DNA from: Bacillota bacterium
Lineage (GTDB): Bacteria; Bacillota; Clostridia; Acetivibrionales; JAMNYG01
DNA length: 64,000 bases
Direction of reading: 5' to 3'
Assembly (NCBI GenBank): GCA_023622945.1
Contig: JAMNYG010000187.1
Span: forward strand, 3,940 to 67,939
Part shown: positions 32,271 to 33,872 of the stretch, piece after piece
Layout: the number at the start of each line of letters is the position of its first letter
Position numbering within the stretch: position 1 is the stretch's first letter
Notes under the pieces: model-generated
What the model was told of the DNA's origin: nothing
Database searches by the model: none
What the model saw: only the letters and a program-made list of their open reading frames with translations
Program-made: the position numbers and the translations under genes

Positions 32271-32969
32271 ATGAAAACGCGGCTTATTTTTGTCCGGCAT
32301 GCGGAAGCCGAAGGCAATTTCAAAAGAATATTTCAGGGATGGACTGACGGTGAACTGACTGAAAAAGGACATATTCAGGCTCAATTGGTAGCTGAAAGGC
32401 TTAAAAACTGGGAAATTGACGTTATCTACTCCAGCTCACTGAAAAGGACCATGCAAACAGCATATTATATATCCCGGGTGAAAAATCTTCCCATCATCAG
32501 AACGGACAAGCTTAAGGAAATAAACGGCGGAGACTGGGAAGGAAGGCCATGGGAAGAACTCCCGTTAAAATGGCCGTTTGAGTATGACACATGGGAAAAC
32601 AAGCCTCATATTCACAAGATGCCTAACGGGGAGTCCATGGAGGGATTCCAGAAGCGTGTGATGGATGAGGTCCTGTACATCATTAAAAATAACGAAGGCA
32701 AAAACATTTGCATTGTAACCCACGGAACTGTTATAAAATCCCTGATATGCTATTTCAGGGGATGCAGCCTGGAAGAAATGGTCAATATACCCTGGTGCGA
32801 CAACACGGCAATAACGGTTATCGATTATGAAGATGGCAGGTTTTCCATTATAACCGAAGGTGACGCATCTCACCTGGAAGGCAGCCTTAGTACATTACAG
32901 AACCAGGATTGGTGGTTTGAGGACCTAAAGAAGATTCAGAACCAAAAATCGATGGAAAAAACTGAATAA
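32271..32969 (+). CDS. histidine phosphatase family protein (phosphoglycerate-mutase-like)
   Basis: The catalytic RHG-type N-terminus LIFVRHAEAEGN, plus a downstream THG (VTHGTVI). Confidence 0.8.
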   Translation: MKTRLIFVRHAEAEGNFKRIFQGWTDGELTEKGHIQAQLVAERLKNWEIDVIYSSSLKRTMQTAYYISRVKNLPIIRTDKLKEINGGDWEGRPWEELPLKWPFEYDTWENKPHIHKMPNGESMEGFQKRVMDEVLYIIKNNEGKNICIVTHGTVIKSLICYFRGCSLEEMVNIPWCDNTAITVIDYEDGRFSIITEGDASHLEGSLSTLQNQDWWFEDLKKIQNQKSMEKTE

Positions 32970-32999
32970 TCGGGTTTATCGCCCATAGGAGGAATGGAA

Positions 33000-33872
33000 A
33001 TGGAGTTGTCTGAAAAAAGGCTGGCTTCAATGTTGTTTGAAACAAAAGCCATAAAGGTCAGCCCTGAGGATAAGCCCTTCTGGTACACGTCGGGGACCAT
33101 AGGTCCTTATTATGTCAATACCCATTACCTGCTGGGAAGTGAAAGAGAAGCCAATGAGCTTTTATTGCTTATCGATAAGGTTAAAGATGATAAAAGCATC
33201 TGTTCTCCGGTCATCTTATCCAGGCTGAAGGAAAGTTATAAAAGTAATCAAACTTATAGAGAACTTATAGATTATATGGTATCATATATAATGAAAAATA
33301 TTGGTACAGATGAGATAGATTACATATCGGGAGGAGAAAGAAGGGACTGGTTCTTTTCCCTTATAGTGGCTGACATCCTGGGCAAGCCGCACATAACGCT
33401 GTTTAAAGACTTAACGGCTGTTATTTATAACGGCAAATACCTGGAAGAAACATATTGCATACACGGAAAAAGAATACTGCACATAGCAGACATAATAACC
33501 GAAGCTTCAAGTTATAAAAGGCAGTGGATTCCGGCAATACAAAAACTTGGCGGTACCTTGAAATGGAGTTTGGCAGTAGCCGACAGGCTTCAGGGAGGTG
33601 CTGAAAATCTTGCTGCTTGTGGCATCGAATCTCATGCGCTCATCAGAATCGACAAGGAACTTTTTGACAGGGGTCTTTCCTTAGGATTTATAAACCACCG
33701 GCAACACATAGTAATAACCGAATATATCAACAACCCCAGGGAAACCATGCGTGAGTTTCTCATACGGCATCCGGAATTCATCAGGAATTCTCTCAGTGCA
33801 GACGCCAAGACTGCCGAAAGGGCAAGGATGTGCATTGAAAAAGACATATACGATTTAAAATGTTTTTATTAA
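33000..33872 (+). CDS. divergent orotate-phosphoribosyltransferase-like (type I PRTase) protein with an insertion and altered catalytic motifs
   Basis: The N-terminal hood resembles Bacillus-type PyrE ([24 protein letters not shown] vs [24 protein letters not shown]). The PRPP loop is recognisable but altered ([13 protein letters not shown] vs VVIEDLISTGGS). A ~60-aa insertion is present, and the K-rich flexible loop (RSKPKAHG) is absent. The ATG at 33000 is preferred over 32994 on RBS spacing. Confidence 0.6.

Follow-up and report, generated by a model that had tools for sequence, protein, structure and literature searches.

The last gene of the pyrimidine operon analyzed here very probably encodes the organism's real orotate phosphoribosyltransferase (OPRTase, or PyrE), which would belong to a large branch of such proteins in cellulolytic clostridia. 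We reach this reading because the gene for this phosphoribosyltransferase-like (PRT-like) protein fills the slot after pyrD that a canonical pyrE would take and never co-occurs with one in the DNA examined; because all of its bearers form one PyrD clade; because its hood, PRPP-loop, and DRxQGG residues are highly conserved; and because PyrF has been fused to the PRT-like protein twice, independently. The protein appears to be a variant of a known enzyme, and the new part would be its long, loop-less form. The explanation that we find likely as a whole is a divergent, functional OPRTase of this clade, with a decayed catalytic loop and compensating residues, accompanied by a PhoE-like histidine phosphatase (HP).

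A PyrR-attenuated operon ending in a PRT-like gene

The window (the whole 64,000-nucleotide stretch of DNA that was analyzed) contains, all on the + strand, pyrR-B-C-F-K-D, then the HP gene, and then the PRT-like gene (PRTL). The original prediction held that the first six genes are canonical, and their profile scores agree: pyrR/B/K/D/F lie above curated NCBIfam cut-offs, and pyrC lies above that of TIGR00857. The genes are pyrR (regulator/UPRTase, 26468..27070; NF003549, 257 bits vs. a cut-off of 138), pyrB (aspartate carbamoyltransferase, 27232..28176; NF002032, 407.5 bits vs. 263), pyrC (dihydroorotase, 28160..29443; TIGR00857, 438 bits vs. 279), pyrF (OMP decarboxylase of the long 'sub2' type, 29455..30408; TIGR02127, 275.5 bits vs. 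110.6), pyrK (electron-transfer subunit of DHODH, 30417..31271; NF000798, 222.9 bits vs. 219), and pyrD (dihydroorotate dehydrogenase 1B, 31326..32255; NF005574, 443 bits vs. 269). The true start of pyrR is probably near 26528, as the match to NF003549 begins at residue 21.

A PyrR-binding attenuator RNA lies 5' of pyrR (26318..26428, + strand; Rfam RF00515, E = 3.2e-6, full model 1-115); within it are a terminator hairpin and a T-run (26396-26419, + strand). This site emerges only at an E-value threshold: its 53.4 bits compare with a gathering threshold of 54, and no Rfam model matches the window at gathering. Also, the exact PyrR loop string CCAGAGAGG has 0 matches. No internal terminator was predicted within the pyr operon. 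We propose that PRTL is transcribed last in a PyrR-attenuated pyrR-B-C-F-K-D-HP-pyrE operon and that its product would turn orotate and PRPP into OMP, to be used by the PyrF that is encoded upstream.

The prediction that no standard pyrE is present holds for the 64-kb window. An HMM from 21 canonical PyrE neighbors matches only PyrR (34 bits) and the PRT-like ORF (25.9 bits) there. (With this HMM, true PyrE proteins score 204-293 bits and PRT-like proteins score 19-43 bits.) The PRT-like ORF itself (32994..33872, + strand) encodes 292 amino acids from its first start. The ATG at 33000, which is 8 nt after AGGAGG, is the likelier start and yields 290 amino acids, which is the database protein P0001; this matches the type I PRTase homolog of about 290 amino acids that had been described.

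Fold and active-site residues of the PRT-like protein

The PRT-like protein has no Pfam match at E ≤ 0.1, PF00156 included, and it falls under every curated PyrE cut-off (NF001729, 59.3 bits vs. 245; TIGR00336, 20.2 bits vs. 106.8; TIGR01367, 14.7 bits vs. 150). Its AF2 model (pLDDT 96.4, pTM 0.92) has the type I PRTase fold, with a Foldseek probability of 1.00 to many type I PRTases, and a PRPP motif is found. The best structural matches are the OPRTases 4ohc/9e5g (TM 0.81-0.84), followed by 2aee, 4rv4, and 2wns; the top 19 matches are all OPRTases or UMP synthase, and APRTs rank lower. A profile of the family run against the PDB gives 4ohc (3e-15), human OPRT (5e-12), and B. anthracis PyrE (5e-11), with APRTs from about 5e-10, and the alignment covers the hood, the core, and the canonical C-terminal helix. 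The HMM and structure comparison that the original prediction suggested thus places OPRTases, not other PRTases, nearest by both Foldseek and the family profile. We rejected the idea that this is a known defense-system PRTase, because neither Pfam nor PADLOC gave a match.

The best match in both sequence and structure is the OPRTase of Burkholderia cenocepacia (4ohc/9e5g; NF001729 / PRK00455.1-3 type). The two proteins share the type I PRTase core, the hood (pF.fTSG..sP.Y), the C-terminal helix, and a PRPP loop of the Thr-x-x-Ser type (VEDLTTDSRS in B. cenocepacia, residues 163-173 in the PRT-like protein). However, they are only about 18% identical (59 bits to NF001729 vs. its 245-bit cut-off). 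Relative to the B. cenocepacia enzyme, the PRT-like protein has an extra helical insertion (about 35 amino acids) and a C-terminal extension (about 40 amino acids); a variable segment replaces the loop RKKPKGFGRN, Glu-Asp becomes Ala-Asp, and an invariant R-R-D is new in the PPi loop.

To describe the sites one by one, we computed residue conservation over 295 family members. The hood (residues 29-42; 33078..33119, + strand) aligns with the hoods of 4ohc and 3m3h. It reads FWYTSGxxGPYY across the family, with positions 77-98% conserved, and so has the OPRTase pattern (aromatic-x-SG-x-x-[SG]P-x-[YF]). The PRPP-binding loop (residues 163-173; 33480..33512, + strand) aligns by hhalign to E. coli MLVDDVITAGTA. 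(The hhalign comparison of the family with an E. coli PyrE sequence gave a partial core alignment at 37% probability and served for residue mapping only.) Both elements had been predicted to be kept, and they are located and conserved in the family. The alteration of the acidic pair is borne out as well: instead of two adjacent acidic residues there is Ala165-Asp166, the first position being Ala in 91% of members and the second remaining Asp in 99%, with S172 (95%) and S173 (98%) also conserved in this loop. DRLQGG (residues 197-202; 33582..33599, + strand) aligns to SLDRQERG of E. coli and LLDREQGG of 2wns, and the Arg of the OPRTase DR..G motif is present (R198 99%, G202 99%). We take DRLQGG to be the orotate-binding Arg156 motif of the E. 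coli and human OPRTases, and the roles of the hood and DR..G residues are presumably those of the Salmonella and E. coli enzymes. Overall, SGGERRD, D166, S172/S173, R198/G202, and R276 are 90-100% conserved.

This conservation bears on whether the PRT-like protein could be a salvage enzyme that acts on a different base (uracil, xanthine, adenine, or the like) and is only a passenger in the pyr operon. The family profile does match APRTs at about 5e-10, and the specificity-determining loop is changed. Nevertheless, the family conserves two OPRTase-specific motifs, the hood and DRxQGG, OPRTases come first in the structural ranking, and the fusions to PyrF and the alternation with pyrE (see below) point the same way. 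We consider a salvage role very improbable.

The family also has features of its own. An internal helical insertion (residues about 55-88; 33156..33257, + strand) has no counterpart in the alignment with 4ohc, and the AF2 helices around it are residues 50-63, 67-84, and 86-103. It had been put at about 60 amino acids, which was an overestimate: the internal insertion is about 34-40 amino acids, and the remaining extra length is the helical extension of about 40 amino acids at the C terminus (residues about 250-292; 33741..33869, + strand). This extension lies beyond the end of canonical OPRTase alignments, is specific to the family, has conserved D270, K272, and R276 (R276 97%), and forms AF2 helices at 248-258, 261-267, and 271-282. 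An invariant motif (residues 112-122; 33327..33359, + strand; 94-100% conserved) coincides in position with the PPi-binding loop, where it is aligned to GGETAGIPFA of 4ohc. The counterpart of this loop in E. coli is, we assume, Y72-K73, and we infer that the motif is equivalent to the K73 site.

The textbook mechanism of OPRTases centers on a mobile catalytic loop that is contributed across the dimer. Its counterpart in the PRT-like protein (residues 137-158; 33402..33467, + strand) is degenerate. This stretch aligns to RKKPKGFGRN (4ohc), RSKAKGHGKG (3m3h), and RKETKDYG (2wns), yet within it residues 140-157 correspond to a segment of 9-38 amino acids across the family that has no conserved basic residue. 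Only K138 (97%) and D139 are conserved, at the base of the loop, and no conserved basic mobile loop of either kind (RKExKxHG or ERxxGxMxxRRGF) is present. The observation that a Lys-rich loop is missing stands, in that there is no conserved basic motif at about 137-158, with the correction that not every accepted OPRTase has such a loop. The TIGR01367 type, which is found in the nearest outgroups and is accepted as OPRTase, carries ERENGxMTLRRGF, which shows that RKExKxHG is not obligatory for the activity. Still, the OPRTases of TIGR01367 and TIGR00336 are 190-225 amino acids long and have their own conserved loops (ERENGxMTLRRGF or NRKExKDHG), and the PRT-like protein has neither. We also considered, and rejected, in-situ descent of PRTL from the TIGR01367-type pyrE that the nearest outgroup carries: the two have unlike hoods (HFxLTSGRHS vs. 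PFWYTSGxxGPYY), and the profile closest to the PRT-like family is of the 4ohc/Bacillus type.

The PRT-like protein has thus retained the orotate hood, a loop for the PRPP 5'-phosphate in which a single Asp is left, and the arginine of DRxQGG, and the mobile Lys/Arg loop of other OPRTases has decayed to a variable hairpin of 9-38 amino acids. The residues that are invariant in the family and new relative to OPRTases are R116-R117-D118, H133, H163, and R276. We propose that the contacts to the leaving group may come from R116-R117-D118 in the PPi loop, H133, K138, H163, and K272/R276 in the C-terminal extension. If this is true, then a family that keeps its substrate sites with a decayed loop would be a second way to run the OPRTase reaction, and these residues would define new invariant positions for OPRTase chemistry.

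Distribution of the family, the pyrE slot, and PyrF fusions

The PRT-like family has thousands of members, which are spread over Acetivibrio, Ruminiclostridium, and their relatives. Among the cellulolytic Clostridia that carry it are Acetivibrio, Ruminiclostridium, Herbivorax, Anaerobacterium, and many MAGs. Pipelines name these proteins inconsistently (OPRTase, PRTase/phosphoribosyltransferase, or hypothetical protein). We found no experimental paper on the family, and nothing on pyrE in Acetivibrio or Ruminiclostridium or on Clo1313_1271 or Clo1313_1437, the C. thermocellum genes discussed below; PMC8457756 and PMC8863071 hold nothing relevant to the family, to pyrE, or to the Clo1313 genes. 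The thought that this might be a well-populated and characterized PyrE subfamily with all of its catalytic residues was therefore half right: the family has many members, which often carry the label OPRTase, but no characterizing paper was found and the canonical loop is missing.

The arrangement pyrK-pyrD-[HP]-PRTL recurs in relatives, where its conservation had been proposed as a check. It is present at 13 of 18 genome loci, in R. cellulolyticum H10 (where the PRT-like protein is ACL75001.1), and on a 505-kb contig. In sister clostridial lineages, the same slot directly after pyrD holds a pyrE of type TIGR01367 ('pyrE_Therm') or TIGR00336 ('pyrE'). Among 80 PyrD-anchored loci, such a pyrE occupies the slot in about 21 and PRTL occupies it in 1. 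The HMMs for canonical PyrE and for PRTL separate cleanly, and the two genes were not found together in any locus examined (about 0.45 Mb of flanking DNA) or in the 64-kb window. All PRTL loci fall within a single PyrD clade, and that clade contains no canonical pyrE.

Fusions tie the PRT-like protein to the next step of the pathway. P0210 (623 amino acids) and P0270 (696 amino acids), which are 51% identical and come from different samples and two species, join PyrF to a PRTase domain that is of the PRTL type and not canonical. Their architecture, with PyrF at the N terminus and the PRTase at the C terminus, is that of the bifunctional PyrF-PyrE or UMP synthase (NF004034; for example, P0276 from a Spirochaetales MAG, with PF00215 and PF00156). 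Unlike in P0276, the PRTase half of P0210 and P0270 is the divergent long form that PF00156 misses. The pathway context is thus that of an OPRTase, with a pyr gene neighborhood, exclusivity within about 0.45 Mb of flanks, and fusions to PyrF.

The PRT-like gene is not always part of the pyr operon, and A. thermocellus and A. mesophilus have it elsewhere. Standalone copies (L005, L009, L013, L018, and L021) showed no PyrR site in their upstream DNA. The A. thermocellus protein is P0287, which by context is Clo1313_1437; it was a hypothetical protein in the older annotation of C. thermocellum DSM 1313. In C. thermocellum proteomics data, the level of this ortholog is about 100-fold below those of PyrF and PyrD. 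No protein whose name begins with 'orotate' appears among the detected C. thermocellum proteins or in the portion of the older annotation that spans genes 1 to about 1850. A. thermocellus is a pyrimidine prototroph and is sensitive to 5-FOA.

Could the PRT-like protein instead be a pseudo-enzyme or sensor? It would bind orotate, PRPP, or OMP without catalysis and act as a regulator or scaffold, and a canonical pyrE would lie elsewhere. PyrR and PurR are PRTase-fold regulators, and, like the PRT-like protein, they have altered catalytic features and belong to nucleotide operons. A pseudo-enzyme would fit the loss of the catalytic loop motif (neither the TIGR00336/4ohc-type nor the TIGR01367-type loop is present), the Ala at the first acidic position of the PRPP motif, the scores under all curated OPRTase thresholds, the scarcity of the ortholog in C. 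thermocellum, and the lack of a detectable PyrR site at standalone copies; these same features count against our main reading. On the other hand, the PyrF~PRTL fusions of two species resemble UMP synthase, and PRTL takes the slot of the canonical pyrE of sister lineages and was never seen with one in the flanks examined. Furthermore, a bona fide pyrR is already in the operon, Pfam detects no RNA- or DNA-binding domain in the PRT-like protein (indeed no domain), and the partial C. thermocellum annotation offers no other protein named for orotate. We judge a pseudo-enzyme improbable. Of the three options in the original prediction, we favor a structurally novel OPRTase, on the basis of fold and profile, the site residues, the PyrR-attenuated pyrE slot, the alternation with pyrE, and the PyrF fusions; the PyrF fusions, and the fact that about 0.45 Mb of flanks held no canonical pyrE, speak against a pyrE elsewhere.

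That the PRT-like protein is the OPRTase would have practical uses. The family lies outside PF00156 and all of the NCBIfam PyrE cut-offs, and with a curated model, gaps in the pathway would be closed in metabolic reconstructions of cellulolytic clostridia. Also, counter-selection with pyrE or pyrF is standard practice in clostridial genetics, so the identity of pyrE in Acetivibrio and Ruminiclostridium would be directly useful for it.

The histidine phosphatase between pyrD and PRTL

As predicted, an RHG-type histidine phosphatase follows pyrD (32271..32969, + strand; 232 amino acids), on the evidence of both Pfam His_Phos_1 (PF00300, E = 6.5e-60, 202.6 bits vs. a cut-off of 21.7) and alignment to PhoE. 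The protein contains LIFVRHAEAEGN and has the RHG, Arg, Glu, and His of histidine phosphatase branch 1. It aligns end-to-end with 1H2E (residues 3-203, E = 1e-40), one of the structures of the broad-specificity PhoE of Geobacillus stearothermophilus (1H2E/1H2F/1EBB), and the catalytic positions RH..R..E..H (Arg-His, Arg, Glu, and His) line up as well. From its sequence, HP is predicted to be catalytically intact. Unlike PhoE, HP has an added C-terminal tail (TxxNQxWW; TLQNQDWW in the window), sits in a pyr operon, and is occasionally fused to an OPRTase or a GNAT domain.

HP falls under all of the NCBIfam equivalog cut-offs. The best is alpha-ribazole phosphatase CobC (TIGR03162, 155.5 bits vs. 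162.9). HP also scores below the cut-off for dPGM-type phosphoglycerate mutase (TIGR01258, 69.3 bits vs. 81.7), which is the old annotation of its C. thermocellum ortholog, and far below the cut-offs of the remaining PGM equivalogs. That ortholog is Clo1313_1271, which follows pyrD (gene list, PMC7471609 supplement), and its protein level goes up together with those of the Pyr enzymes.

HP is an optional, conserved companion of the pyr operon in two clostridial clades. Its orthologs follow pyrD in 17 of the 80 PyrD-anchored loci, and in the second clade there is no PRTase alongside. In A. thermocellus, HP stays beside pyrD although the PRT-like gene is elsewhere. Conversely, HP is missing from five loci, in which PRTL follows pyrD and no phosphatase gene intervenes, so an obligatory partnership of HP and PRTL is excluded. 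HP~PRTL fusions arose at least three times (P0114, P0123, and P0354), which would be explained if HP physically adjoins the OPRTase in some lineages.

These data also bear on whether the two proteins form a base-to-nucleoside module, in which PRTL would ribosylate orotate or another base and HP would strip the 5'-phosphate to give orotidine or uridine, rather than serving UMP synthesis. The analogy is CobT and CobC, which make alpha-ribazole. There, too, a PRTase gene is beside a histidine phosphatase gene, and the same logic is suggested here by the adjacent genes, by the three independent HP~PRTL fusions, and by HP's best NCBIfam match being alpha-ribazole phosphatase, just below its cut-off. 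However, CobT differs in fold, the genes here are set among those for pyrimidine and not cobamide synthesis, and HP is dispensable for PRTL: five pyrD-PRTL loci lack it, PRTL is elsewhere in A. thermocellus and likewise off the pyr genes in A. mesophilus, and the second clade has HP after pyrD without a neighboring PRTase. Moreover, the PyrF~PRTL fusions point to OMP going to the decarboxylase, and with such a module the pathway would be without an OPRTase. We hold this module to be quite improbable. The third option of the original prediction, that the pair performs some other transaction, is thus weakened by the dispensability of HP, and the three fusions keep some functional coupling possible.

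Another possibility concerns HP alone: it could be a sugar-bisphosphate phosphatase that feeds ribose-5-P and PRPP, like sedoheptulose-1,7-bisphosphatase in transaldolase-less organisms, or a housekeeping phosphatase without a role in pyrimidine synthesis. Yeast Shb17 is a sedoheptulose-1,7-bisphosphatase and a model for the supply role, and the pentose phosphate pathway of cellulolytic clostridia runs by way of sedoheptulose-bisphosphate. The broad specificity of the PhoE-like family and the lack of an equivalog assignment would fit either role. So would the iCBI655 model, in which Clo1313_1271 is only one of six generic PGM candidates. Against this, the recurrent placement right after pyrD in two clades and the fusion to OPRTase suggest a link to pyrimidines, and we found no tie of HP to sugar bisphosphates. 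We regard a supply or housekeeping role as unlikely, if less so than the module above.

With a functional OPRTase as the preferred reading of PRTL, HP would be an active PhoE-like phosphomonoesterase that is not required for the OPRTase step. Its placement after pyrD in two clades and its repeated fusion to OPRTase point to an unrecognized phosphatase function tied to pyrimidine supply. Our working guess, held with low confidence, is that HP dephosphorylates a nucleotide of the pathway (UMP or OMP) as an overflow valve that is co-expressed with it. A bolder combination is that a clade-wide OPRTase, shared by the biofuel model organisms C. thermocellum and R. cellulolyticum, dropped its mobile loop, closes its site with the Arg-Arg-Asp PPi loop and a C-terminal helical lid, and also works physically with the PhoE-like phosphatase of the operon, which would add an undescribed dephosphorylation step (for example, the UMP/OMP overflow valve). 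We put this forward tentatively and think it somewhat doubtful.

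The pyr operon and its control

The operon opens with a PyrR-binding attenuator (26318-26428, + strand; RF00515 at E = 3e-6 and 53.4 bits, where the gathering score is 54) that includes a terminator hairpin with a T-run (26396-26419, +). As this attenuator is complete yet just under the Rfam gathering score, a default scan misses the PyrR site. Next, all on the + strand and each above its curated NCBIfam cut-off, are pyrR (26468-27070), pyrB (27232-28176), pyrC (28160-29443), pyrF of the long "sub2" type (29455-30408), pyrK (30417-31271), and pyrD (31326-32255). (The NCBIfam match to pyrR covers nothing before residue 21, so translation probably starts about 60 nt 3' of 26468.) The operon ends with a 232-aa PhoE-like histidine phosphatase (HP, 32271-32969, +) and a phosphoribosyltransferase-like ORF (PRTL, 32994-33872, +). 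The gaps before these two genes are short (15 nt, then about 25-30 nt), the ribosome-binding sites are good, and no terminator was predicted between pyrD, HP, and PRTL. For PRTL, the spacing of the ribosome-binding site favors the ATG at 33000; the resulting 290-aa protein matches database entry P0001 exactly.

Unlike most relatives, the window lacks carA-carB between pyrF and pyrK (30408-30417). Also, within 33872-39612, a canonical pyruvate:ferredoxin oxidoreductase (1174 aa, about 33932-37456; the ORF finder's start at 33860 is over-extended) separates PRTL from the miaB-like gene, which in relatives lies directly 3' of PRTL. A GH18 protein with SLH domains (50501-52345, -) and a GH114-like protein (25305-26171, -) fit a cell-surface, polysaccharide-active clostridial lifestyle.

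Fold and catalytic residues of PRTL

We propose that PRTL is probably a functional orotate phosphoribosyltransferase (OPRTase, PyrE), because of its modeled fold, its substrate-site residues, its operon slot, its alternation with pyrE, the monophyly of its loci, and its fusions to PyrF. Against this, PRTL fails the curated PyrE thresholds: NCBIfam gave sub-threshold PyrE matches only (NF001729, 59 bits vs 245; TIGR00336, 20 vs 107), and Pfam gave no match at E ≤ 0.1. From 67 diverse members of the family, AlphaFold gave a model of very high confidence (pLDDT 96.4, pTM 0.92). When Foldseek compared this model with the PDB, all of the top matches were OPRTases. The Burkholderia enzymes 4ohc/9e5g come first (TM 0.81-0.84 on target, ~18% identity), followed by those of S. 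pyogenes, B. anthracis, human, S. mutans, and Leishmania (UMP synthase); adenine phosphoribosyltransferases rank below the OPRTases. The family profile matches 4ohc (3e-15), human OPRT (5e-12), and B. anthracis PyrE (5e-11). These alignments take in the hood at the N terminus, the core, and the canonical helix at the C terminus, so the truly extra parts of PRTL are an insertion of ~35 aa (about residues 55-88) and a C-terminal extension of ~40 aa (about 250-292), both helical, rather than the single ~60-aa insertion of the original prediction.

Every motif quoted in that prediction is present in the window. Across 295 full-length members, the hood F29-W-Y-T-S-G..G-P-Y-Y-x-N42 is 77-98% conserved, S112-G-G-E-R-R-D-W-x-F-S122 is 94-100% conserved, and D197-R198-x-Q-G-G202 is 91-99% conserved, with R198 aligned to E. 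coli Arg156 and the human DREQGG motif. Other conserved residues are H133 (96%), K138 (97%), H163 (97%), D166 (99%), S172 and S173 (95% and 98%), W178 and P180 (99% and 100%), and R276 (97%). D166 aligns to the second Asp of the PRPP motif. The acidic pair of that motif is altered as predicted: 91% of the 295 members have Ala in place of its first acidic residue.

The catalytic loop that the original prediction could not find is indeed missing. The segment opposite the mobile loop is 9-38 aa long, and only K138 and D139, at its base, are conserved; the aligned counterparts are RKKPKGFGRN (4ohc), RSKAKGHGKG (B. anthracis), and RKETKDYG (human). However, a Lys-rich loop is not shared by all OPRTases, as the TIGR01367-type PyrE of the nearest outgroups has ERENGxMTLRRGF instead. 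The loss of the loop motif and of one acidic residue argues against OPRTase activity. What is unusual in the PRTL alignment is the lack of any conserved loop motif, together with new invariant basic residues elsewhere (R116 and R117 at the PPi-loop position, K272 and R276 within the added C-terminal helices). These four residues may take over the role of the catalytic loop.

Two proteins from different samples, P0210 (623 aa) and P0270 (696 aa, present in JGI and GEM as well), join an N-terminal OMP decarboxylase to a C-terminal PRTL domain and are 51% identical to each other. With the PRTL HMM, these PRTL domains reach 267 and 277 bits, with the canonical PyrE HMM no more than 16, and they keep ISGGERRDW and LHxADLINTASSY. 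This is the architecture of UMP synthase, and P0276 has the same architecture with a canonical phosphoribosyltransferase half. The PyrF-PRTL fusions tie PRTL to OMP production. (Both PRTL domains are only about 33% identical to the window's, both genes, L103:402-2273 and L107:2739-4829 respectively, lie outside any pyr operon and adjoin a PHP-domain protein, and P0270 ends in about 85 aa of low complexity.)

Distribution of PRTL and pyrE

A first search with PRTL found 2157 cluster representatives at E ≤ 1e-3, mostly of about 285 aa; a search with the Acetivibrio mesophilus ortholog found 4596 at E ≤ 1e-60; and among 1.84 billion representatives at 50% identity, scanned exhaustively, 580 matched, 118 of them below 1e-30. 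PRTL is a compact family, clearly apart from mainstream PyrE. HMMs tell the two kinds of protein apart cleanly: PRTL scores 357-428 bits on its own HMM and 19-43 on the PyrE HMM, while canonical PyrE scores 204-293 on the PyrE HMM and ≤27 on that of PRTL. Named sources of PRTL include Acetivibrio (A. thermocellus, A. mesophilus, A. cellulolyticus, and A. alkalicellulosi), R. cellulolyticum, R. papyrosolvens, R. josui, Herbivorax, and Anaerobacterium, under the names "orotate phosphoribosyltransferase," "phosphoribosyltransferase," or "hypothetical protein." Some pipelines already name it as OPRTase, yet it is outside the Pfam and NCBIfam definitions and its catalytic apparatus is altered. A full-text literature search found no experimental work on the family. 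PRTL and HP are not a new kind of system; rather, a textbook enzyme has in PRTL a divergent subfamily, as yet unstudied by experiment.

PRTL follows pyrK-pyrD in 13 of 18 reference-genome loci, either with HP between (9) or directly after pyrD (4). The common order is pyrB-C-F-carA-carB-pyrK-pyrD-[HP]-PRTL-miaB-like-ylbF-mutS-mutL-miaA. R. cellulolyticum H10 (PRTL protein ACL75001.1) has exactly pyrB-C-F-carAB-K-D-HP-PRTL and is a tractable model that shares the window's pyrD-HP-PRTL arrangement. In A. mesophilus and A. thermocellus, PRTL still precedes miaB...mutS, with no pyr genes next to it.

We also surveyed loci anchored on PyrD instead of PRTL. A metagenome scan with a PyrD alignment returned 80 loci at 53-70% identity, with canonical pyrE 3' of pyrD in about 21 (TIGR01367 type, ~190 aa, or TIGR00336 type, ~225 aa), HP in 17, and PRTL in one (L025). 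With the HMMs, canonical pyrE was not found together with PRTL in any surveyed locus or in the 64-kb window. In a neighbor-joining tree of PyrD, a single clade holds all of the PRTL loci plus L023 and L024, which are C. thermocellum-like, and contains no canonical pyrE; the nearest outgroup (L026) has pyrD-pyrE. Such a pattern is what one replacement of pyrE by another type of OPRTase in the same operon slot would leave.

As a pyrimidine prototroph that is 5-FOA sensitive, C. thermocellum must have an OPRTase. Neither its detected proteins nor genes 1 to about 1850 of an older annotation include an "orotate..." name, which partially supports PRTL as the OPRTase. The ortholog in strain DSM 1313 is Clo1313_1437, from the sequence and context of P0287 (L108:8001-8876); in supplementary file 4 of PMC7471609, it is a "hypothetical protein" between aroB and MiaB. 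Two observations count against OPRTase function: in that file, its proteomic intensity is roughly 100-fold below PyrF and PyrD, and no PyrR site was detected upstream of standalone PRTL copies. (One standalone copy, in L005, lies a few kb from a c-di-AMP riboswitch, 16587-16718, -, 89.7 bits, and a T-box leader, 18958-19192, +, 106.9 bits; these are probably unrelated to PRTL.)

The histidine phosphatase

HP belongs to branch 1 of the histidine phosphatases (PF00300, E = 6.5e-60) and scores under every NCBIfam equivalog cut-off (alpha-ribazole phosphatase, 155.5 vs 162.9; phosphoglycerate mutase models far below). Among solved structures, the nearest to HP is that of PhoE, a broad-specificity phosphatase from Geobacillus (1H2E, E = 1e-40), and every catalytic residue lines up. 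Within the PRTL clade, HP orthologs show 59-70% identity and have the tail TxxNQxWW at the C terminus in common. At least three sequence-distinct HP-PRTL fusions exist: P0114 (2 contigs), P0123, and P0354 (3 contigs, one of 505 kb with the full operon). HP counts as a true and recurring component of pyr operons in clostridia.

HP is a conserved partner of PRTL, although UMP can be made de novo without a phosphatase. By analogy with E. coli UmpH, we weakly favor a putative UMP/OMP phosphatase that would act as an overflow valve. Alternatively, HP could be a sugar-phosphate phosphatase that feeds PRPP supply, or a passenger gene.

PRTL does not require HP, as five loci have pyrD-PRTL without it, and in A. 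thermocellus HP remains with pyrD, not PRTL. In the supplement of PMC7471609, the DSM 1313 operon runs from 1264 (pyrB) to 1270 (pyrD), 1271 ("Phosphoglycerate mutase"), and 1272 (metallophosphoesterase); gene 1271 (Clo1313_1271) is the HP ortholog. The iCBI655 model lists it as one of six generic phosphoglycerate mutase candidates (PMC7471609), and in a hydG-ech mutant the protein is up together with the Pyr enzymes (PMC7471609 supplement).

The linkage of pyrD to the phosphatase is broader than the PRTL family: HP is also 3' of pyrD in a second, separate PyrD clade, with no phosphoribosyltransferase nearby. Most of the 17 surveyed loci with HP directly 3' of pyrD, which fall in the two clades, lack a nearby phosphoribosyltransferase (L023, L024, L029, L034, L036, L039, L042, L047, L049, L054, L059, L061, L065, L068, L073, L081, and L098). 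In the second clade, HP is sometimes fused to a GNAT acetyltransferase domain; these fusions (355-364 aa; L029:4016-5107, L034:2916-4010, and L047:5018-6085) lie in one clade and have a Radical_SAM_N/DUF3362 (YgiQ-like) protein 3' of them.
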